Shown here: piece after piece, positions 760-64,000 of the stretch | Position numbering within the stretch: position 1 is the stretch's first letter | Layout of the letters: the number at the start of each line of letters is the position of its first letter | Assembly (NCBI RefSeq): GCF_044704955.1 | Contig: NC_091997.1 | Coordinates: 79,112,001 to 79,176,000, forward strand | Reading direction: 5' to 3' | DNA length: 64,000 bases | Origin: Pristiophorus japonicus | Taxonomy: Eukaryota | Notes under the pieces: model-generated | The model's input: the letters and a program-made list of their open reading frames with translations, nothing else | What the model was told of the DNA's origin: nothing | Databases searched by the model: none | Translations under genes and position numbers: made by a program

Positions 760-1560
760 GAGCCCCATCACAATGTCACGGCCTTAGAGAGGGTGCAGAG
801 GAGAATTCTCAGAATGGTACCCAGGATGAGGAACTTCAGTTATGTGGAGAGACTGGAGAAGCTGGGTGTTATATATGCAGACTATAGATATACTCTCTGT
901 GTAGTCACTGTATAGTTGCATAAGATGGAGACTTGTTACCTGATGTATTGTCAATAAGGCTTACGCTGTGTATACACTATGCTGGCACCACTAGAGGGTG
1001 CAACTGGTGGAGACCGGGGTTTCCTGCTCCTGTGGCAGAGGCTGTCCACCAGAGGGCACTACGGTGGGAGACCTCAGGGTCACCTGCATAGATGTGCAGG
1101 GCCCAGTATATAAGGCTGCCCACCATGCTTGTGCCTCACTCTGGAGTTACAAATAAAGGACCAGGGTCACTACAGTTTGAGTACAATACATTGCCTCGTG
1201 GAGTCATTCATAAGTGCATTACAGACATAACACTGGGGTTGTTCTCCTTGGAACAGAGAAGGCTAAGGGGAGATATAATACAGGTGTTCAAAATTCTGAG
1301 GAGTTTTGATAGAGTCGATAGGCTGAAATTATTTCCACTAGCGGGAGAGTCAGTAACCAGTAAGATAATTGGCAAAAAAATAGAGGGAAGATGAGAATTT
1401 TTTTTTTACACAGCGAGCTGGGATGATCTGGAATGCACTGACAAAATGTGGTGGAAGCAGATTGAAAAGGGAATTGGATATATACTCAAAAAAGGAACCA
1501 TTTGCAGGACTATGGGGAAAGATCAGGGGAATGGGACCAATTGGATATCTCTTTCAGAGA
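760..1560 (+). mobile_element. Old CR1 LINE 3' fragment interrupted by a solo LTR
   Basis: LERVQRR...LEKLG|LFSLEQRRLRGDIIQVFKI motif is split at 866/1233. Confidence 0.75.
867..1232 (+). mobile_element. Solo LTR (366 bp) with 5-bp TSD CTGGG
   Basis: Ends TGTTA...TAACA; CTGGG at 862-866 and 1233-1237; TATATAA at 1107 and AATAAA at 1152. Confidence 0.85.
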
Positions 1561-1779
1561 GCCGGAATGGACAGAATAGTCTCTTTCTGAACTGTATGAG
1601 CAGTATTCAGTGCTTGGATTTGCAGAGAGCTGAGAGTTGTTGAAGGAAGAGAGGTGTTTGACATGAAAGAGTTAAACAAGCCTCACGGAAGCAGTTTCTG
1701 GGATGGAGGAGCAATGGGCCTCCAAGTGAGGCCAAGAATGCCAATTGACGATGAAACAATGAAGTTAAGGCCATCTAAA

Positions 1780-4290
1780 AAACTTATATTTCTGTAGCTT
1801 CTTTCACGACCACCGGACGTCTCAAAGCGCTTCACAATGAATGAAGTTCGTTTGGAGTGTAGTCACTGTTGTAATGTAGGAAACATGGCAAACAATTTGC
1901 ACACAGCAAGCTCCCACAAACAGCAATGTGATAATGACCAGATAATCTGGTTCTGCTTTGTTGATTGAATGACAAATATTGGCCTCAGGACACCGGGGAT
2001 AACTCCCCTGCTCTTAACATAGAAACATAGAAACATAGAAAATAGGTGCAGGTGCAGGCCATTCAGCCCTTCTAGCCTGCACCGCCATTCAATGAGTTCA
2101 TGGCTGAACATGAAACTTCAGTACCCCCTTCCTGCTTTCACGCCATACCCCTTGATCCCCCGAGTAGTAAGGACTTCATCTAACTCCCTTTTGAATATAT
2201 TTAGTGAATTGGCCTCAACTACTTTCTGTGGTGGAGAATTCCACAGGTTCACCACTCTCTGGGTGAAGAAGTTTCTCCTCATCTCGGTCCTAAATGGCTT
2301 ACCCCTTATCCTTAGACTGTGACCCCTGGTTCTGGACTTCCCCAACATTGGGAACATTCTTCCTGCATCCAACCTGTCCAAACCCGTCAGAATTTTAAAC
2401 GTTTCTATGAGGTCCCCTCTCACTCTTCTGAACTCCAGTGAATACAAGCCCAGTTGATCCAGTCTTTCTTGATAGGTCAGTCCCACCATCCCGGGAATCA
2501 GTCTGGTGAATCGTCGCTGCACTCCCTCAATAGCAAGAATGTCCTTCCTCAAGTTAGGAGACCAAAACTGTACACAATACTCCAGGTGTGGCCTCACCAA
2601 GGCCCTGTACAACTGTAGCAACACCTCCCTGCCCCTGTACTCAAATCCCCTCGCTATGAAGGCCAACATGCCATTTGCTTTCTTAACCGCCTGCTGTACC
2701 TGCATGCCAACCTTCAATGACTGATGTACCATGACACCCAGGTCTCGTTGCACCTCCCCTTTTCCTAATCTGTCACCATTCAGATAATAGTCTGTCTCTC
2801 TGTTTTTATCACCAAAGTGGATAACCTCACATTTATCCACATTATACTTCATCTGCCACACATTTGCCCACTCACCTAACCTATCCAAGTCACTCTGAAG
2901 CCTCATAGCATCCTCCTCGCAGCTCACACTGCCACCCAACTTAGTGTCATCCGCAAATTTGGAGATACTACATTTAATCCCCTCGTCTAAATCATTAATG
3001 TACAATGTAAACAGCTGGGGCCCCAGCACAAAACCTTGCGGTACCCCACTAGTCACTGCCTGCCATTCTGAAAAGTACCCATTTACTCCTACTCTTTGCT
3101 TCCTGTCTGACAACCAGTTCTCAATCCATGTCAGCACACTACCCCCAATCCCATGTGCTTTAACTTTGCACATTAATCTCCTGTGTGGGACCTTGTCGAA
3201 AGCCTTCTGAAAGTCCAAATATACCACATCAACAGGTTCTCCTTTGTCCACTTTACTGGAAACATCCTCAAAAAATTCCAGAAGATTTGTCAAGCATGAT
3301 CTCCCTTTAACAAATCCATGCTGACTTGGACCTATCATGTCACCATTTTCCAAATGCGCTGCTATGACATCCTTAATAATTGATTCCATCATTTTACCCA
3401 CTACTGAGGTCAGGCTGACCGGTCTATAATTCCCTGTTTTCTCTCTCCCTCCTTTTTTTAAAAGTGGGGTTACATTGTCTACCTTCCACTCCATAGGAAC
3501 TGATCCAGAGTCAATGGAATGTTGGAAAATGACTGTCAATGCATCCGCTATTTCCAAGGCCACCTCCTTAAGTACTCTGGGACGCAGTCCATCAGGCCCT
3601 GGGGATTTATCGGCCTTCAATCCCATCAATTTCCCCAACACAATTTCCCGACTAATAAAGATTTCCCTCAGTTTCTCCTCCTTACTAGACCCTCTGACCC
3701 CTTTTATATCCGGAAGGTTGTTTGTGTCCTCCTTAGTGAATACTGAACCAAAGTACTTGTTCAATTGGTCTGCCATTTCTTTGTTCCCCGTTATGACTTC
3801 CCCTGATTCTGACTGCAGGGGACCTACGTTTGTCTTTACTAACCTTTTTCTCTTTACATACCTATAGAAGCTTTTGCAATCCGCCTTAATGTTCCCTGCA
3901 AGCTTCTTCTCGGACCCCATTTTCCCTGCCCTAATCAAACCCTTTGTCCTCCTCTGCTGAGTTCTAAATTTCTCCCAGTCCCCAGGTTCGCTGCTATTTC
4001 TGGCCAATTTGTATGCCACTTCCTTGGCTTTAATACTATCCCTGATTTCCCTAGATAGCCACGGTTGAGCCACCTTCCCTTTTTTATTTTGACGCCAGAC
4101 AGGAATGTACAATAATGCCGTGGGATCTTTTACGTCCACCTGAGAGAGCAGACAGGACCTCGGTTTAACGTCTCGTCCGAATGACAACACCTCCGACAGT
4201 GCAGCGCTCCCTCAGCACTGCAGGGAGTGTCAGCCTGGATTTTTTTGTGCTCAAGTCCCGAGAGTGGAACTTGAACCCACAGGCAAGTGT
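1780..4290 (-). mobile_element. Deu-domain SINE split into about 1780-2015 and 4115-4290 by a CR1 insertion
   Basis: The two halves are consecutive parts of the SINE consensus. Confidence 0.75.
2017..4112 (-). mobile_element. Young 5'-truncated CR1 LINE with uninterrupted RT reading frame
   Basis: ORF 2118..4190 has KSPGPDG, NYRPVSLTS, YLDFQKAFDKVPH, SGVPQG and FADDTKL; (TTTCTATG)n tail. The first ~27 aa of the ORF are read-through from the SINE. Confidence 0.95.
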
Positions 4291-4340
4291 GCCATAGCTG
4301 ACCATCGGGAAAGAAGTGTGACATAATAGAGGAAAATAAG

Positions 4341-4830
4341 CTTTGAGTACAGGGGCAGGGAGGTGTTACTACAGTTGTACAGGACCTTGGTGAGGCCACA
4401 CCTGGAGTATTGTGTACAGTTTTGGTCTCCTAACTTGAGGAAGGACATTCTTGCTATTGAGGGAGTGCAGCGAAGGTTCACCAGACTGATTCCCGGGATG
4501 GCGGGACTGACATATCAAGAAAGACTGGATCAACTGGGCTTGTATTCACTGGAGTTCAGAAGAATGAGAGGGGATCTCATAGAAACGTTTAAAATTCTGA
4601 CGGGTTTAGACAGGTTAGATGCAGGAAGAATGTTCCCAATGTTGGGGAAGGCCAATTCACTAAATATATTCAAAAAGGAGTTAGATGTAGTCCTTACTAG
4701 GGGGATCAAGGGGTATGGCGAGAAAGCAGGAATGGGGTACTGAAGTTGCATGTTCAGCCATGAACTCATTGAATGGCGGTGCAGGCTCAAAGGGCCGAAT
4801 GGCCTACTCCTGCACCTATTTTCTATGTTT
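4341..4830 (+). mobile_element. CR1 3' fragment with a short internal deletion
   Basis: ORF 4363..4743 [15 protein letters not shown]; near-identical to the copy at 2017-4112 but in opposite orientation. Confidence 0.9.
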
Positions 4831-5599
4831 CATGTCAGCAGTCTCAGGAATAGAGGAAGGATAAGGTTCCAAGTTGAGGCCAAGAATGCCAAGTGATGAT
4901 GAAGCAATGAGATTGTAACTATTGGGTTTGACTTGCCAGAGCTGTGAGGCAATTGTGCCATTGAAGAATTGGAAGAGACGAGATTGTCACTGTCCCATTG
5001 GAAGGCATACCGGATGTCTAGATGCATTGAACTAGTCACTGGTCTATGCTCTGAAGTTGATTAATGTGGAGTGGAAAAGAATGGGTGGTTAATGCCCTCA
5101 GTGCGGGCCAAGTCTTTATTTCCGCAATGTCTCGAAATGCTCGCCTAATAGAAACTGAAACGTATTCGCCATAAACAACCAACTGAACCTGGATTTATCG
5201 GAGGACCATTTTGTTTTTATATACAGTCTGCTCTTTATTCAAGTTGCATGACAATTCATCTTTTTTGGCAATACTTTCGAACTTTATCTTGCTTAATTCA
5301 ATTTATTTGAATAATTCAAGTTGTTATTAGCACTAAAAAAAAAAGGATTTCGGATTTTGGCAGCTGGAATATTCTGAACCGGCATGGGACCTGTAAGATT
5401 TCATGCCAGTTCATTTCAATCAGGATTATTAAAGCCTGTTCCAGATTGTTTATAAGCAATGCGCCCTGCTATATCTGTGGCAATAAATTCCTGGGGCATA
5501 GGTTGGGCAGGAATCGGTTGAAATTCAGGCTTCTTTGGGTATATGTTGAGACATGAATATACACCTGTCAGATAGCAGGGCACCGAAAATAGGAGCTGC

Positions 5600-5772
5600 A
5601 ACTATTTTAGTAGAAACTTTAAATCGAGTGCCCCCTCGAACCCACAAATGAACAACTTAACACTGTAACAAAAAACCTTAATCAAATTAGAATTTGGTTG
5701 CCGGGGGTGATGATGCACTCCAGTCCCTCCGGCGCCCACCTCTCGCGGAAGGCCGCGAGCGTACCGGTGGAG
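5600..5772 (-). mobile_element. Tx1-like L1-clade 3' fragment
   Basis: GTLAAFRERWAPEGLECIITPGNQILI* matches the copy at 18346-18667. Confidence 0.6.
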
Positions 5773-6673
5773 CTGTAAGCCGCAGGAACAATGTGTTTTA
5801 TTGGCTTGGAGCTGCGTTGCTGTCGTCGATGCTGAGCCCTATTTAATGGGTATGTATCTTGGACTTGGCTGAAAATCAACGCCACAAGCAACTCGGCTTA
5901 GTCATTGTGACGCAGAATAAATTATTGCGATGAAGCCGGGCTCGGAACCTCCCCGGGGCTCAGTGGTTTTTCTTCAGCCCTTAGATTGGAACCGGTTCCA
6001 AGGGGTGTCCGGTTTGGTTGCCAGTCTGTCCTGAGTTAGGTGATTTGAGACAGAATGTTGGCAATTGTTTTCAGCATTCCTAGCCAAGGAAGGTGTGGAA
6101 GGGTGGGTGGGGGGGGGGGGGTGGGGGGACCCTTAATTGCTCGTTGGAAAGTGTGCATCAGGTGAGGACGGTGTCGGTCTGGGCTGTGCTGCCCCCACAG
6201 TCGAGCAGCCTGTCAGCACACACTGTCACACGTGAAGGATGGACACTTCAATGAGGGAATAGAATGGGTTTCCAAAAAGAACAAGTGTGGCTGAAAGATA
6301 TTTTGCAAACATTAAGAGCTTTGTATAAAGACATGCATTTATAGAACACCTTTCACGACCACCGGAAGTCCCAGAGCACTTTGCAGCCAATTTTTTTGAC
6401 GTGTAGTTACTGTTGTAATGTAGGAAATGAGACAGTCAATTTGCGTACAGCAAGCTCCCAAAAACAGTAATGTGATAATGACCAGATAATCTGTTTTAAT
6501 GAAGTTCATTGAGGGATCAATATTGGCCAGGATACCAGGGATAACTCCCCTGCTCCTTCCTCAAAATAGTGCCATGGGATCTTTTACATCCTCTTGAGAG
6601 AGCAGACAGGGACTCGGTTTAATGTCTCATCCGAAAGACAGCACCTCCGACAGTGCAACACTCCCTTAGCACT

Positions 6674-38946: not shown

Positions 38947-40913
38947 GGCCCTGAAATTCCGGCCTCCCTGGGTCCATACGGAGTTCCTACGGACCCGGGA
39001 AGGCATCGGAAATGCGCATGCGCTGGAAACCGGCACTTCCGATCTGTCAAGTTTCTGGCTTGACCGATCGCACGCGTCTCGGGAACGAGGACACGTGTAA
39101 GTGGAAATTTCCGATATTTACGCTTACAAATGTCCTCAAAAATCTTGTGCTTGAAAAAGCAGGCACATAGCCTACTGTTACAGGCGCAAGTGTTTTAAAA
39201 AAAACATCTAAAAAAATAAAGTTATTAAAATATATTTTATCATTAAAAACCCTCCCCACAACGGTAAGTTTATTTTAAAAAAACTTTAAAAAACATTGGG
39301 AAATTATTTTTTATTAAGACATTAATAACTTTAATTTAAATGAATATAGTTATTTAATTATTTTCTATTTTTTATTATTGTTTTGGGTATTTTGGGCTGT
39401 GTTTTGGGTGTTTCGTGCTCTATCACAAAATCATAGTATTGGGGGTTTAGGACCCTGCTGATCTCCTATTACTATGATACTTTACCTAATTGTAACTAGC
39501 AGAGTGGACAAGGGAGAACTAGTGGATGTGGTGTATTTGGACTTTCAAAAGACTTTTGACAAGGTCCTGCATAAGAGATTGGTGTGCAAAATCAAAGCGC
39601 ATGGTACTGGGGGTAATGTACTGACGTGGATAGAGAACTGGTTGGCATACAGGAAGCAGAGAGTCGGGATAAACGGGTCCTTATCAGATTGGCAGGCAGT
39701 GACTAGTGGGGTGCTGCAGGGCTCAGTGCTGGGACCCCAGCTCTTTACAATATATATTAACGATTTAGATGAAGGAATTGAGTGTAATATCTCCAAGTTT
39801 GCAGATGACACTAAACTGGGTGGTAGTGTGAGCTGTGAGGAGGATGCTAAGCGGCTGCAGGGTGACTTGGACAGGTTAGGTGAGTGGACAAATGCATGGC
39901 AGATGCAGTATAATGTGGATAAATGTGAGGTTATCCATTTTGGGAGCAAAAACAGGAAGACAGAATATTATCTGAATGGCGGCAGATTAGGAAAAGGGGA
40001 GGTGCAACGAGACCTGGGTGTCATGGTTTATCAGTCATTGAAAGTTGGCATGCAGGTACAGCAGGCGGTGAAGAAGGCAAATGGTATGTTGGCCTTCATA
40101 GTTAGGGGATTTGAGTATAGGAGCAGGGAGGTCTTGCTGCAGTTGTACAGGGCCTTGGTGAGGCCTCACCTGGAATATTGTGTTCAGTTTTGATCTCCTA
40201 ATTTGAGGAAGGACGTTCTTGCTATTGAGGGAGTGCAGTGCAGGTTCACCAGACTTATTCCAGGGATGGCTGGACTGTCATATGAGGAGAGACTGGATCA
40301 ACTGGGCCTTTATTCACTGGAGTTTAGAAGGATGAGGGGGGATCTCATAGAAACGTAAAAGATTCTGATGGGACTGCACAGGTTAGATGCGGGAAGAATG
40401 TTCCCGATGTTGGGGAAGTCCAGAACCAGGGGACATGGTCTTAGGATAAGGGGTAGGCCATTTAGGACTGAGATGAGGAGAAACTTCGTCACTCAGAGAG
40501 TTGTTAACCTGTGGAATTCCCTGCCGCAGAGAGTTGTTGATGCTAGTTCATTGGATATATTCAAGAGGGAGTTAGATATGGTCCTTACGGCTAAGGGGAT
40601 CTGGGGATATGGAGAGAAAGCAGGAAAGGGGGTACTGAGGGAATGATCAGCCATGATCTTATTGAATGGTGGTGCAGGCTAGAAGGGTCGAATGGCCTAC
40701 TCCTGCACCTATTTTCTATGTTTCTATGATTGGCTGCCCAGAGCCATGTGACTCCAGCTGTAGGCCTGCGCACGCGTCGACGTGCACGCGCTGCGACTGG
40801 CAGTCAGGAGAGGCCTCAGCATCGGAAAGTCCAACGTGGGCAGCAGCTTAAGGTAGGTGCGTATTTTTTTCTCTAAAATGCCCGCGGGAAGGCCAAACCG
40901 GAATTTCAGGGCC
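38947..40913. mobile_element. MITE (same family as 9489-10181) containing a CR1 insertion
   Basis: Perfect 16-bp TIR GGCCCTGAAATTCCGG / CCGGAATTTCAGGGCC. Confidence 0.78.
39490..40727 (+). mobile_element. CR1 3' fragment (RT C-terminal half)
   Basis: ORF 39474..40193 YLDFQKTFDKV...FADDTKL; CR1 tail. Confidence 0.92.
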
Positions 40914-43999: not shown

Positions 44000-46395
44000 A
44001 GAAACATAGAAACATAGAAACATAGAAAATAGGTGCAGGAGTAGGCCATTCGGCCCTTCTAGCCTGCACCGCCATTCAATGAGTTCATGGCTGAACATTC
44101 AACTTCAGTACCCCATTCCTGCTTTCTCGCCATACCCCTTGATCCCCCTAGCAGTAAGGACCTCATCTAACTCCTTTTTGAATATATTTAGTGAATTGGC
44201 CTCAACAACTTTCTGTGGTAGAGAATTCCACAGGTTCACCACTCTCTGGGTGAAGAAGTTCCTCCGCATCTCGGTCCTAAATGGCTTACCCCTTATCCTT
44301 AGACTGTGACCCCTGGTTCTGGACTTCCCCAACATTGGGAACATTCTTCCTGCATCTAACCTGTCTAACCCCGTCAGAATTTTATATGTTTCTATGAGGT
44401 CCCCTCTCATTCTTCTGAACTCCAGTGAATACAAGCCCAGTTGATCCAGTCTTTCTTGATAGGTCAGTCCCGCCATCCCGGGAATCAGTCTGGTGAACCT
44501 TCGCTGCACTCCCTCAATAGCAAGAATGTCCTTCCTCAGGTTAGGAGACCAAAACTGTACACAATACTCCAGGTGTGGCCTCACCAATGCCCTGTACAAC
44601 TGTAGCAACACCTCCCTGCCCCTGTACTCAAATCCCCTTGCTATGAAGGCCAACATGCCATTTGCTTTCTTAACCGCCTGCTGCACCTGCATGCCAACCT
44701 TCAATGACTGATGTACCATGACACCCAGGTCTCTTTGCACCTCCCCTTTTCCTAATCTGTCACCATTCAGATAATAGTCTGTCTCTCTGTTTTTACCACC
44801 AAAGTGGATAACCTCACATTTATCCACATTATACTTCATCTGCCATGCATTTGCCCACTCACCTAACCTATCCAAGTCGCTCTGCAGCCTCACAGCATCC
44901 TCCTCGCAGCTCACACTGCCACCCAACTTAGTGTCATCCGCAAATTTGGAGATACTACATTTAATCCCCTCATCTAAATCATTAATGTACAGTGTAAACA
45001 GCTGGGGCCCCAGCACAGAACCTTGCGGTACCCCACTAGTCACTGCCTGCCATTCTGAAAAGTACCCATTTACTCCTACTCTTTGCTTCCTGTCTGACAA
45101 CCAGTTCTCAATCCATGTCAGTACACTACCCCCAATCCCATGTGCTCTAACTTTGCACATCAATCTCTTGTGTGGGACCTTGTCGAACGCCTTCTGAAAG
45201 TCCAAATATACCACATCAACTGGTTCTCCCTTATCCACTCTACTGGAAACATCCTCAAAAAATTCCAGAAGATTTGTCAAGCATGATTTCCCTTTCACAA
45301 ATCCATGCTGACTTGGACCTATCATGTCACCTCTTTCCAAATGCACTGCTATGACATCCTTAATAATTGATTCCATCATTTTACCCACTACCGATGTCAG
45401 GCTGACCGGTCTATTATTCCCTGTTTTCTCTCTCCCTCCTTTTTTAAAAAGTGGGGTTACATTGGCTACCCTCCACTCCATAGGAACTGATCCAGAGTCA
45501 ATGGAATGTTGGAAAATGACTGTCAACGCATCCACTATTTCCAAGGCCACCTCCTTAAGTACTCTGGGATGCAGTCCATCAGGCCCTGGGGATTTATCGG
45601 CCTTCAATCCCATCAATTTCCCCAACACAATTTCCCGGCTAATAAGGATTTCCCTCAGTTCCTCCTCCTTACTAGACCCCCCGACCCCTTTTATAACCGG
45701 AAGGTTGTTCGTGTCCTCCTTCGTGAATACCGAACCAAAGTACTTGTTCAATTGGTCCGCCATTTCTTTGTTCCCCGTTATGACTTCCCCTGATTCTGAC
45801 TGCAGGGGACCTACATTTGTCTTTACTAACCTTTTTCTCTTTACATATCTATAGAAACTTTTGCAATCCGTCTTAATGTTCCCTGCAAGCTTCTTCTCAT
45901 ACTCCATTTTCCCTGCCCTAATCAAACCCTTTGTCCTCCTCTGCTGAGTTCTAAATTTCTCCCAGTCCCCAGGTTCGCTGCTATTTCTGGCCAATTTGTA
46001 TGCCACTTCCTTGGCTTTAATACTATCCCTGATTTCCCTTGATAGCCACGGTTGAGCCACCTTCCCTTTTTTATTTCTATGCCAGACAGGAATGTACAAT
46101 TGTTGTAGTTCATCCATGCGGTCTCTAAATGTCTGCCATTGCCCATCCACAGTCAACCCCTTAAGTATCATTCGCCAATCCATCTCAGCCAATTCACGCC
46201 TCATACCTTCAAAGTTAGCCTTCTTTAAGTTCTGGACCATGGTCTCTGAATTAACTGTTTCATTCTCCATCCTAATGCAGAATTCCACCATATTATGGTC
46301 ACTCTTCCCCAAGGGGCCTCGCACAACGAGATTGCTAATTAATCCTTTCTCATTACATAACACCCAGTCTAAGATGGCCTCCCCCCTAGTTGGTC
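44000..46395 (-). mobile_element. Young 5'-truncated CR1 LINE with an intact 752-aa ORF2 portion
   Basis: ORF 44105..46363 runs from the endonuclease C-terminal SDH motif through RT to the stop without interruption. Confidence 0.96.
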
Positions 46396-57257: not shown

Positions 57258-57718
57258 ATGCCTGAAGGACCCGAACTTCACTTGGCAAGCCGGTTTGTTA
57301 ACCGAGTCTGCAGTGGCGCCGTGTTTTCAGGCAAAGTGGAAAAGTCGGCAGTGAGCAAAAACTGCGAGGTGCCTTTTGAGTGCGACGCTTACGTCATCTC
57401 CGCCGCCTCGCGAGGGAAAGAGGTCAAGCTGACTCTCACCCCCATCAAGGAGGAGGACGTCAAGCCACCTGCGCTGGAGCGCACAAAGGGATTGCCCGGT
57501 CCCATGGACATCGTCTTCCGCTTCGGGATGTCGGGGTCCTTCAAACTGACGAGCGAGGAAGAGGTCCCCAAACACGCCCATCTCAAGTTCTTCACCAACG
57601 GGAGGCCCAGGCAGGTGCTGTGCTTTGTTGATGCGAGGCGGTTCGGGAGCTGGGAGGTCCACGGGACCTGGCAGCTGGACAGAGGGCCTTGTGTGATGTT
57701 TGAATATGAAAAGTTCAG
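57258..57718 (+). CDS. NEIL1: NEIL1 (endonuclease VIII-like 1 DNA glycosylase), first coding exon
   Basis: MPEGPELHLAS catalytic N-terminus, SRGKE, FRFGMSGSF, PKHAHL, LCFVD.RRFG; acceptor ctag ending at 57244, donor gtatga at 57719. Confidence 0.96.
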
Positions 57719-57802
57719 GTATGATTGTGTTTCTTTTCTCTCCTAATTTCTGTGAGAGGGGGAGGCTGGCCAAAGGCTGTCCTTGTCCATTTGCCCTATC
57801 CT

Positions 57803-58824
57803 CATCAACGTAGGCAGTCCCTCGAAATCGAGGAAGACTTGCTTCCATTCTAAAAGTGAGTTCTCAGGTGGCTGTACAGTCCAAGACGAGAACCACAGTC
57901 CCTGTCACAGGTGGGACAGATAGTTGTTGAAGGAAAGGGTGGGTGGGGAATCTGGTTTGCCGCACGCTCCTTCCGCTGCCTGCGCTTGTTTTCTGCATGC
58001 TCTCGGCGACGAGACATAGAAACATAGAAAATAGGTGCAGGAGTAGGCCATTCGGCCCTTCAAGCCTGCCCCACCATTCAACAAGATCATGGCTGATCAC
58101 CCACCCCAGCACTCCCCCCCCCCCCCCCCCCACCCACAACCCCCCCCCCAATCCCCCCAGCCGCAAGGACCACATCCAACTCCCTCCCGAACACATCCAA
58201 TGAACTGGCATCAACAACTCTCCGCGGCAGGGAACCCCACGGGCCAACAACTCCCTGAGTGAAAAAGTCTCTCCCCATCCCAGCCCCAAACAGCCCACCC
58301 CCCCACCCAACACCGGAAACACCCCCCCCCCGCACCCAACCCGCCCCGTCCCGTCAGAATCCTTCCCAAATGCCGAATACCCCCGGATGTCGAGCCCCCA
58401 GCCCCGGCCACCCCGGAGCCACACCCCCGCGACGCCAACCACACCACATCCACCAACCGCCATCTACGCAGTCAACCCGTCCACCCCCACTCCGAATACT
58501 CCCCGCACCGAGGCACAGAAACTCGAGGTGTTCAGCGCCCTCCCGGATGCTCTTCCTCCACTGAGGGCGGTCTTTGGCCAGGGACTCCCAGGTGTCGGTG
58601 GGGATGTTGCATTCTATCAAGGAGGCTTTGAGGGTGTCCTTGAAACGTTCCCTCTGCCCACCTTCCGAGTTCCGAGTAGAGCGCTTGCTTTGGGAGTCTC
58701 ATGTCTGGCATGCGGACGATGTGGCCCACCCAGCGGAGCTGGTCGAGTGTGGTCAGTGCTTCGATGCTGGGGATGTTGGCCTGGCCGAGAACGCTAACGT
58801 TGGTGCGTCTGTCCTCCCAGGGGA
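57803..58824 (-). mobile_element. RTE 3' fragment split by a CR1 insertion
   Basis: CGACGAGAC|...|ACTCGAGGTG halves are contiguous in the RTE consensus. Confidence 0.87.
58014..58519 (-). mobile_element. Internally deleted, A-to-G hypermutated CR1 copy
   Basis: Intact CR1 tail; ungapped alignment to 40461-40600 dominated by A>G changes; degenerate APE endonuclease N-terminus. Confidence 0.88.
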
Positions 58825-63150: not shown

Positions 63151-63243
63151 GGCGGCCCACGATTTATGTAAGTTGATGTTAGTGACACTGCCTGCGATGT
63201 AGCTACAAGTTTAATATTTAACTTTGCTTTTCACCTATCCCAG

Positions 63244-63363
63244 ATTGAATGTGCTATCAAATTTGTCAGACAAAGCCTTTGACAAGCCAATCTGCGAGGT
63301 TCTATTAAACCAAAAATACTTCAACGGTATTGGGAATTATCTCCGAGCAGAGATTCTATTCAG
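63244..63363 (+). CDS. NEIL1: NEIL1 second coding exon (H2TH motif); the gene continues beyond the window
   Basis: RLNVLSNLSDKAFDKPICEVLLNQKYFNGIGNYLRAEILFR; cccag acceptor, gtgagg donor, phase 2-2. Confidence 0.96.
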
Positions 63364-63434
63364 GTGAGGCAGACTTCATTTTATTTTCATTCTTCCCCAA
63401 CTCCCACTTCCTTCTTCACCGGAAATGATTGGGT

Positions 63435-63655
63435 AGGATAGTCCGGGCCTGTCGGGATAGTCCGGGCCGGTCGGGCCTGTTGGATAGCCTGGGCCGGTCG
63501 GGATAGCCTGGGCCGGTCGGGATAACCTGGGCCGGTCGGGATAGTCTAGGCCTGTCGGGATAGTCCGGGCCTGTCGGGATAGTCTAGGCTTGTCTGGATA
63601 GTCTGGGCCTGTCAGGGACAGTCCGGGACGGTCAGGACAGTCTGGGCCTGTAGGC
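63435..63655. repeat. 19-bp minisatellite (about 11 copies) just downstream of the NEIL1 exon
   Basis: Unit TCGGGATAGTCCGGGCCTG. Confidence 0.9.
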
Positions 63656-64000
63656 CTCTCCACAGTCACTGAGTAAATCCTTCCTGTGTCCCACCCTTGT
63701 GAGACGGGGGGTACTCTCACCGCACTCTGTGTCACGGTTCAACGCGGATCGTAAGTGCTTGAATGACGTGCGTAGGTGTTTGCTCAAGGCTTGAAGTTGA
63801 ACCCCGGTTCAGAGTTCAGCTGTTGAGTCCTGCATCTGACATTTTCTTTAATATAAATTCGTTTATCTTTAGAGGCCAAAGCCACAGAGAGAGCTGTGGC
63901 TCGGTGCCTTAGTGCCTGTCGGGATATTATCTTGGAAAGAGTATAGAGTGGAATGGCGTGGATGATTTACTGGCTGCAGGAGTTTGCAGTGAGGAAATAT

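Follow-up and report, generated by a model that had tools for sequence, protein, structure and literature searches.

One-strand A-to-G hypermutation of a CR1-derived element in a NEIL1 intron of Pristiophorus japonicus, and the dispersed family to which it belongs

Why should a short fragment of a CR1 retrotransposon differ from another copy in the same region almost entirely by A>G changes on one strand? The question was raised by an element within a window of 64,000 nucleotides (the whole stretch of DNA analysed here; Pristiophorus japonicus, GCF_044704955.1, NC_091997.1:79,112,001–79,176,000). A first-pass annotation, made from the letters of the window alone, had read the element as the genomic fossil of a CR1 RNA that was hyper-edited by an ADAR-type enzyme and then retrotransposed in the germline. 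ADARs edit adenosines with a 5' neighbor preference of U>A>C>G, which gives such a reading a recognizable pattern of contexts. We therefore asked what the element is, where it came from, and which process wrote A>G into it.

The copy in the NEIL1 intron

The element is antisense to NEIL1, within the intron that follows the gene's first coding exon (Table 1), and the next exon lies inside the reading frame at 63215–63367. Exons were thus identified on either side, in agreement with its original placement inside a NEIL1 intron. Short tandem repeats directly follow the second of these exons (63376–63740). The insertion interrupts a host repeat that we take to be an RTE-like LINE. The peptide of this repeat was without a match in a Pfam search, and GT is either duplicated at the insertion joint or common to the tail.

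Table 1. Features at and around the insertion, in window coordinates
Feature	Position	Strand	Remark
NEIL1 first coding exon (host gene)	57258..57719	+	PDB match, E 3.5e-50
Host repeat, 3' part	57802..58013	-	Also joints skipping ~507 nt in sequencing runs
Edited non-autonomous CR1-derived family, 5'-truncated copy	58014..58519	-	Family positions 382-889 of 899
Unedited CR1 3' terminus: stem-loop and 8-nt tail repeat	58014..58081	-	Consensus A converted 0/14
A>G-edited CR1 RT coding-region end and most of the 3' UTR	58082..58358	-	
GAT microhomology at the ~2.7-kb internal deletion, endonuclease start joined to RT end	58359..58361	-	
A>G-edited CR1 ORF2 start (endonuclease)	58359..58519	-	
Same interrupted host repeat, 5' part	58520..58824	-	
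Parent CR1 subfamily, unedited 5'-truncated comparison copy	39498..40731	+	

The bias that drew attention to this element was reproduced on recounting. The reverse complement of 58151–58290 aligns without gaps to 40461–40600, and the 24 differences comprise 20 A>G, two T>C, one C>T, one G>T and no G>A, with 20 of 37 A converted. The original tally by 5' neighbor stood for A (5/6) and G (5/17) and was off by one site elsewhere, T being converted at 8/9 rather than 8/8 and C at 2/5 rather than 2/6. The edited endonuclease peptide is present as described, and the unedited parent peptide, for which the annotation had used a CR1 consensus, was recovered from the genome's own full-length CR1 copies. 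The start of the parent ORF2 matched the Pfam domain Exo_endo_phos (E 2.4e-06), and the edited peptide was without a match in the same kind of search.

The most 3' edit of the window copy is at 58082, so that 58014–58081 is free of edits and the end of the CR1 tail was indeed spared. This terminus probably acts as the recognition site for the CR1 reverse transcriptase. Its stem-loop has a z-score of -2.8 in the family consensus and of -1.4 in the mutated window copy, the latter not being significant.

A dispersed family with a shared edited body

Searching the 5.92-Gb genome with the 506-nt window copy returned 3,845 candidates. The 39 candidates that were scored, excluding the window copy itself, matched at 87–91% over nearly the full length and across the join between endonuclease and reverse transcriptase (RT) sequence. 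A 25-mer spanning this join had 673 exact matches, 316 forward and 357 reverse, and its reversed control had none. Correcting for decay, with a chance of an exact match of 0.41, gives a family of about 1,600 copies. Use of the 5' unique part as query returned 1,627 candidates.

Longer copies revealed the layout of the element. They begin with a 37/38-nt tandem array (1–107 units), continue with an unedited segment of about 190 nt that carries a palindrome and intact TA dinucleotides, and then enter CR1. The CR1 portion consists of 334 nt from the edited inter-ORF region and the edited ORF2 (endonuclease) start, a deletion of about 2.7 kb at GAT microhomology common to the family, the RT end, the 3' UTR and the tail. 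Similarity to the parent CR1 begins only in the inter-ORF region; because the head is an unrelated array and palindrome, the family works like a short internally deleted element (SIDE) but is composite. We presume this composite head to be comparable to that of SVA. In one copy, the unedited 5' segment (L004:1160–1335) contains a hairpin of about 25 bp and has a diverged repeat match at L062:6844–6931 (79%), and is possibly a MITE-like piece.

All copies have the same tail, and they differ in their flanks and 5' ends. The 5' truncation points of 46 copies fell in the array (30), the unique part (6) or the CR1 part (10), which together with the differing flanks and shared tail is the anatomy that target-primed reverse transcription (TPRT) predicts. 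At non-CpG sites, divergence was 2.9% for the family versus a median of 2.7% for parent copies, which had been picked for closeness. The family amplified at about the same time as its partner CR1 and was dispersed with TPRT anatomy. Some family copies have identical flanks (L018, L022–L024, L028 and L029 on C23 and C3501; L002, L003, L006 and L007 on small contigs), i.e., these were multiplied in segmental duplications or tandem blocks and not by new insertion. Three others (L008, L010 and L012) retain an edited segment between G runs that most copies have lost, and the family therefore has deletion variants. No master locus or true 5' end was found among 22 long copies; each of them stops within the array, which has up to 107 units, or downstream of it, and these copies share no upstream sequence, chance repeats aside. 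An Rfam search for a SINE-type head (derived from tRNA, 5S or 7SL RNA) with two loci having long arrays gave no match, a result that applies to sequence 3' of the true 5' end, as every copy examined was truncated in the array or later.

To quantify the changes, we compared a family consensus from 22 of 30 loci, eight having been dropped as segmental duplicates, with a parent consensus based on seven long and thirty 3'-end unedited CR1 copies. The bias held against this true source subfamily: 137 of the 150 differences were A>G, corresponding to conversion of 137/205 A, while T>C occurred at 0/120 and G>A at 2/191 sites (Fisher test of A>G versus T>C, p = 5e-40). All other changes amounted to 13 of 611 aligned sites. 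APOBEC editing was rejected on the same comparison, as sense-strand clusters of G>A are absent. Conversion by 5' neighbor was 29/29 for T, 53/68 for A, 27/41 for C and 28/65 for G, and depletion of 5' G relative to the rest was significant (p = 8e-7). There was no preference for a 3' G in the family consensus (46/66 before G and 48/68 before A). Edits start at the CR1 boundary and spare both the 5' unique part and the tail, with all 14 A kept in the last 76 nt of the consensus. Editing lowered the A content of the body from 34% to 11%, raised its CpG count from 10 to 36 and reduced TA from 33 to 0; the edited body has four G-quadruplex motifs. It also has a stop-free frame, which we set aside because the loss of every TA alone abolishes TAA and TAG.

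Against this background the status of the window copy is clear. Of 83 sites edited in the founder, 79 carry G in this copy; it shows 21 mismatches in 496 nt and is cut off at family position 382. It is an ordinary truncated descendant of an edited founder and not the edited molecule itself. What survives of the original proposal is the process, A-to-I-type editing of CR1 RNA followed by germline retrotransposition, which is supported genome-wide; what does not is the identification of this copy as its immediate product. Its further suggestion that the locus records the inactivation of a LINE was not supported, the edited founder having instead grown into a family of about 1,600 copies. The location in NEIL1, whose mRNA had been mentioned as an ADAR target, is due to chance since family copies are scattered over the chromosomes.

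Edited CR1 insertions elsewhere and their unedited sources

We next looked for editing in CR1 insertions outside the family. The probe was a 29-nt RT motif from the region missing in the family, with its four TA set to TG. It had 20 matches in the genome and none for the control, compared with 124,744 for the unedited motif and two for the complementary T>C version. The first-pass annotation had proposed that an excess of sense-strand A>G clusters with 5' G depleted would support a genome-wide phenomenon, and the motif matches show such an excess over the T>C version. All 20 matches are edited tracts of 61–1,597 nt whose pairwise agreement is at most 0.74 (152 pairs). These 20 edited CR1 insertions are independent, none being copied from another.

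Rates were taken from a fixed interval around the motif, which is the fair count; picking tracts skips 5'-G sites and inflates the non-G rates. With the motif sites omitted, A>G occurred at 689/1582 sites in the 20 edited copies versus 31/2667 in 30 ordinary copies. By 5' neighbor, conversion in the edited copies was 126/197 for T, 271/458 for A, 140/428 for C and 152/452 for G. There was a weak effect of a 3' G (G 262/492, A 239/478, C 81/216 and T 107/349). The last 60 nt of the edited insertions were near background (9/222 in 19 copies). The raw rate of edited insertions is 0.016% (20 versus 124,744), which we infer to be about 0.04–0.1% once the need for all four TA to be edited is allowed for. 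Roughly 1 in 1,000–6,000 CR1 insertions is edited, and those examined are single-copy.

One of these insertions (L130) contains two inverted CR1 arms, both with A>G on the same strand, and its unique spacer led to an unedited source on another contig. The source (C6:19975644–19982174) and the daughter (C22:17897321–17903850) differ at 386 positions, of which 360 are A>G. The daughter is 6,530 nt long, 5'-truncated, ends at the CR1 tail and interrupts an older CR1. A>G was found at 279/574 sites in the stem, 0/74 in the loop, 2/521 in the spacer and 0/140 in the terminal CR1; the 2.9 kb outside the stem and the distal arm total 2/735, and the last edit is 4 nt from the end of the stem. By 3' neighbor, stem conversion was 99/164 for G versus 42/108 for C and 62/150 for T. 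The distal arm was also edited (79/526), and its only partner is located beyond the tail in the source, which suggests that the RNA extended past the tail and was either primed internally or cut after editing. A third locus, in the G000:C36:31504100 region (L146 and L148), has the 2.6-kb unique spacer and the CR1 3' end at 97%. The block at C6 interrupts an antisense CR1, so that C6 looks like a transduction from C36 and the chain would run C36 -> C6 -> C22. The truncation points of the daughter (G000:C22:17897321) and the window copy (at 58519) almost coincide within the start of CR1 ORF2, reflecting either chance or a preferred site.

The second source-daughter pair came from one of the two matches to the T>C control (L133), which is edited on the antisense strand. 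Source (C8:1761978–1763819) and daughter (C10:98263719–98265552) differ by 174 changes, 136 of them A>G, and these fall in the stem arm (134/281) rather than the 3' end (2/175; p = 1e-32). The source is unedited and has the same fold-back layout as the one on C6, so that this control match represents one half of an edited fold-back, namely its second arm. The remaining control match (L132; G000:C5:221125385–221128413) has the same layout, with an antisense CR1 piece (62/87 edits) followed by the unedited sense CR1 end of another subfamily. In the C8/C10 pair, 72 nt opposite a gap in the partner arm were edited at 12/20 sites. Despite being able to pair with the loop, the terminal CR1 end was left unedited in each of the two pairs; early formation of a nested stem, combined with selection for a readable tail, could account for this.

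In these two pairs, which are other insertions of the same CR1 group, A>G is confined to long double-stranded RNA (dsRNA). Edits that fill the stems and spare loop, spacer and 3' end are characteristic of dsRNA editing and speak against polymerase error. Depletion of 5' G with preference for 5' U or A was seen in the family, both stems and the 20 independent copies. A higher rate after C than after G holds for the family and both stems but fails in the fixed interval of the 20 copies.

Origin of the founder and relation to known systems

Given these results, we think it highly probable that a CR1 founder was edited by ADAR and was then amplified into the family. The observations underneath this reading are one-strand A>G, a shared founder, dispersed amplification and stem dependence in two other insertions. 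A CR1-containing RNA would have formed a duplex hundreds of nucleotides long, its most likely partner being an inverted CR1 copy carried on one and the same read-through transcript. It would have been hyper-edited A-to-I, presumably by ADAR and at a germline or early embryonic stage. Six contigs contain A_deamin (ADAR-family) genes. The CR1 reverse transcriptase would then have started at the 3' tail, which had stayed intact, copied inosine as G and integrated the product. The A>G changes are fixed in DNA, and the tail, 5' truncation and target-site overlap point to this route of insertion. One product, internally deleted and located behind the 37/38-nt tandem array, would have become a transcribed master, from which the parent CR1 would have made about 1,600 copies in trans. 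The amplification itself is observed, while the promoter was probably supplied by the array or sequence upstream of it, and the parent CR1 is the likely mobilizing enzyme. Neither the unedited source of the founder nor its partner arm was recovered in the genome searches, and editing of the founder in dsRNA is therefore probable by analogy with the two source-daughter pairs.

Was the founder edited in one event? We scored 96 locus alignments (65 + 1 + 30, with a few loci repeated), and all were mostly G at the founder-edited sites. Copies carrying the same edits imply that one founder was edited and then amplified. Alignments L001, L078, L081 and L092 reach into flanks or are old, and L081 and L092 were excluded from the pooled test. 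Across 28 of the 30 junction-picked copies, G was lost at similar rates from edited non-CpG sites (66/2899) and from sites that had been G in the parent (85/4676; p = 0.18). Alternatively, ADAR editing could have built up over several rounds in the master lineage. A conversion of 67% in the family, exceeding the 48–49% of the two single-event stems, counts against a single event, 7 of 30 copies in two samples have A at one edited site, and change of retained A to G was slightly more frequent than T to C (24/1736 versus 20/3135, p = 0.011). However, no partly edited intermediate was found among the 96 alignments, single-copy tracts reach 159/250, 180/274 and 114/154 (score-picked and thus upward-biased), and A-to-G beside G runs may be slippage or alignment noise. 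We consider several rounds improbable.

Searches for an unedited precursor of the family recovered none. A query with A at one junction site had five matches, all back-mutated edited members, and the unedited 5' junction had one, an edited member with A at 4/134 sites. With the 5' unique part, the best 30 fetched of 1,627 candidates all (30/30) run into edited CR1. The sensitivity of these searches for a copy diverged by about 3% is roughly 0.4 and 0.8 (the latter by arithmetic), and a precursor may therefore have been missed.

Polymerase error would generate the same changes with no RNA editing, either through an error-prone polymerase during top-strand synthesis (Pol iota placing G opposite template T, or Pol eta at WA) or through reverse transcription under dNTP imbalance. 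When T is the template, Pol iota is reported to insert G more readily than A (PMC10779026). Conversion is highest in the contexts TA and AA, and the two antisense-edited copies also carry top-strand A>G. Nevertheless, A>G tracks the inverted-repeat pairing of the RNA in both source-daughter pairs, and a polymerase on a linear template would not see pairing. The C6/C22 pair has three A>T and no A>C against its 360 A>G, and Pol iota is described as very distributive (PMC10779026), yet the tracts extend up to 1,597 nt. The two pairs largely refute polymerase error, which we hold to be very improbable.

An artefact of base calling, polishing or assembly, or a comparison with the wrong subfamily, is scarcely credible and already refuted at the family level: no contig crosses the whole window locus and G runs are error-prone, but the 673 junction matches occur on both strands, each checked copy has its own flanks and decay, only the 13 of 611 sites noted above show other changes relative to the parent, and sequencing runs from three studies contain the edited endonuclease part. 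Independent reads had been proposed as a check, and three of four runs confirm the edited sequence for the family, if not for the entire locus. The three (X1, X5 and X8) span two organism labels, and X1 may be the assembly's own sample. In X8, a 268-nt contig matches 58302–58519 with seven other letters. The fourth run (X10, organism D, about 61% read) had no cover of 58356–58519, which does not imply absence. X8 (organism B) is a second organism label with edited family sequence; provided that this label is correct, the founder could be older than a split between species.

With an ADAR-edited founder as the preferred reading, it is conceivable, although rather doubtful, that editing made the element succeed, its RNA being better transcribed or escaping silencing aimed at the parent CR1 with the tail still usable. 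A-rich LINE sense strands are poorly transcribed according to PMC9099904, and a gain from editing is therefore possible. If true, a host defence would have created a new mobile family in one step.

Each component has precedents. Depletion of G upstream of the edited A is an established mark of ADAR (PMC4365171, PMC8586724), and A>G hyper-editing is recorded in the avian retroviruses RAV-1 and ALV after reverse transcription (PMC8586724). Both there and here, A>G is clustered on one strand, avoids 5' G and was written to DNA by a reverse transcriptase. The present elements differ in being non-LTR and germline-fixed; unedited sources persist in the genome, and one product has multiplied about 1,600-fold. 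Alu pairs and similar hyper-edited inverted-repeat RNAs (PMC4365171) also have dense A>G with upstream G depleted, but theirs are transient RNA changes and here we see DNA copies of such RNAs. Screens of genomes for edited retroelements report G>A (PMC4866542, PMC3880073, PMC2873906). These APOBEC fossils are likewise heritable deaminase scars in retroelements (PMC4866542, PMC3880073) and similarly rare, at 0.26% of lizard L1 (PMC3880073) versus 20 of 124,744 (raw) here. CR1 SIDEs, e.g., Persaeus/Zenon, are known and rare (PMC6740152); they too are non-autonomous, internally deleted and equipped with the 3' end of a similarly timed active partner CR1. The family differs from them in having a hypermutated CR1 body and a head of tandem array and palindrome in place of the parent's 5' end. 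Our literature search, mostly without subscription papers or supplements, found neither germline-fixed ADAR tracts in LINEs with source loci nor a family founded by an edited RNA. Both kinds are known, and their combination, ADAR hypermutation with a non-autonomous LINE derivative, was not found in print.

If ADAR edited the founder, the marks of RNA editing have become heritable in this genome, and one of the edited RNAs gave rise to a spreading family. Inherited traces of deaminases in retroelements have so far been credited to APOBECs. ADARs are held to control LINEs mostly by means other than editing, and L1 RNA editing by ADAR1 was not detectable in human 293T cells (PMC5224506). The genome keeps DNA copies of hyper-edited fold-back RNAs alongside their unedited sources. 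Such copies would be natural single-molecule records of A-to-I editing in the germline or early embryo, datable by decay and requiring no RNA sample. They also indicate that the CR1 machinery copies host read-through RNAs, and in one case the priming site was apparently an internal tail. The family, for its part, indicates that a successful element can arise from an edited RNA. Ordinary repeat finders would mis-annotate the G-rich body of the family; hence, the same history may lie behind other G-rich families, and searches in three-letter space could test this in any genome. In the window itself, two 2.1-kb CR1 copies in opposite orientation (2016–4113 and 44003–46100), 96% identical and 40 kb apart, are a potential long dsRNA if transcribed together.
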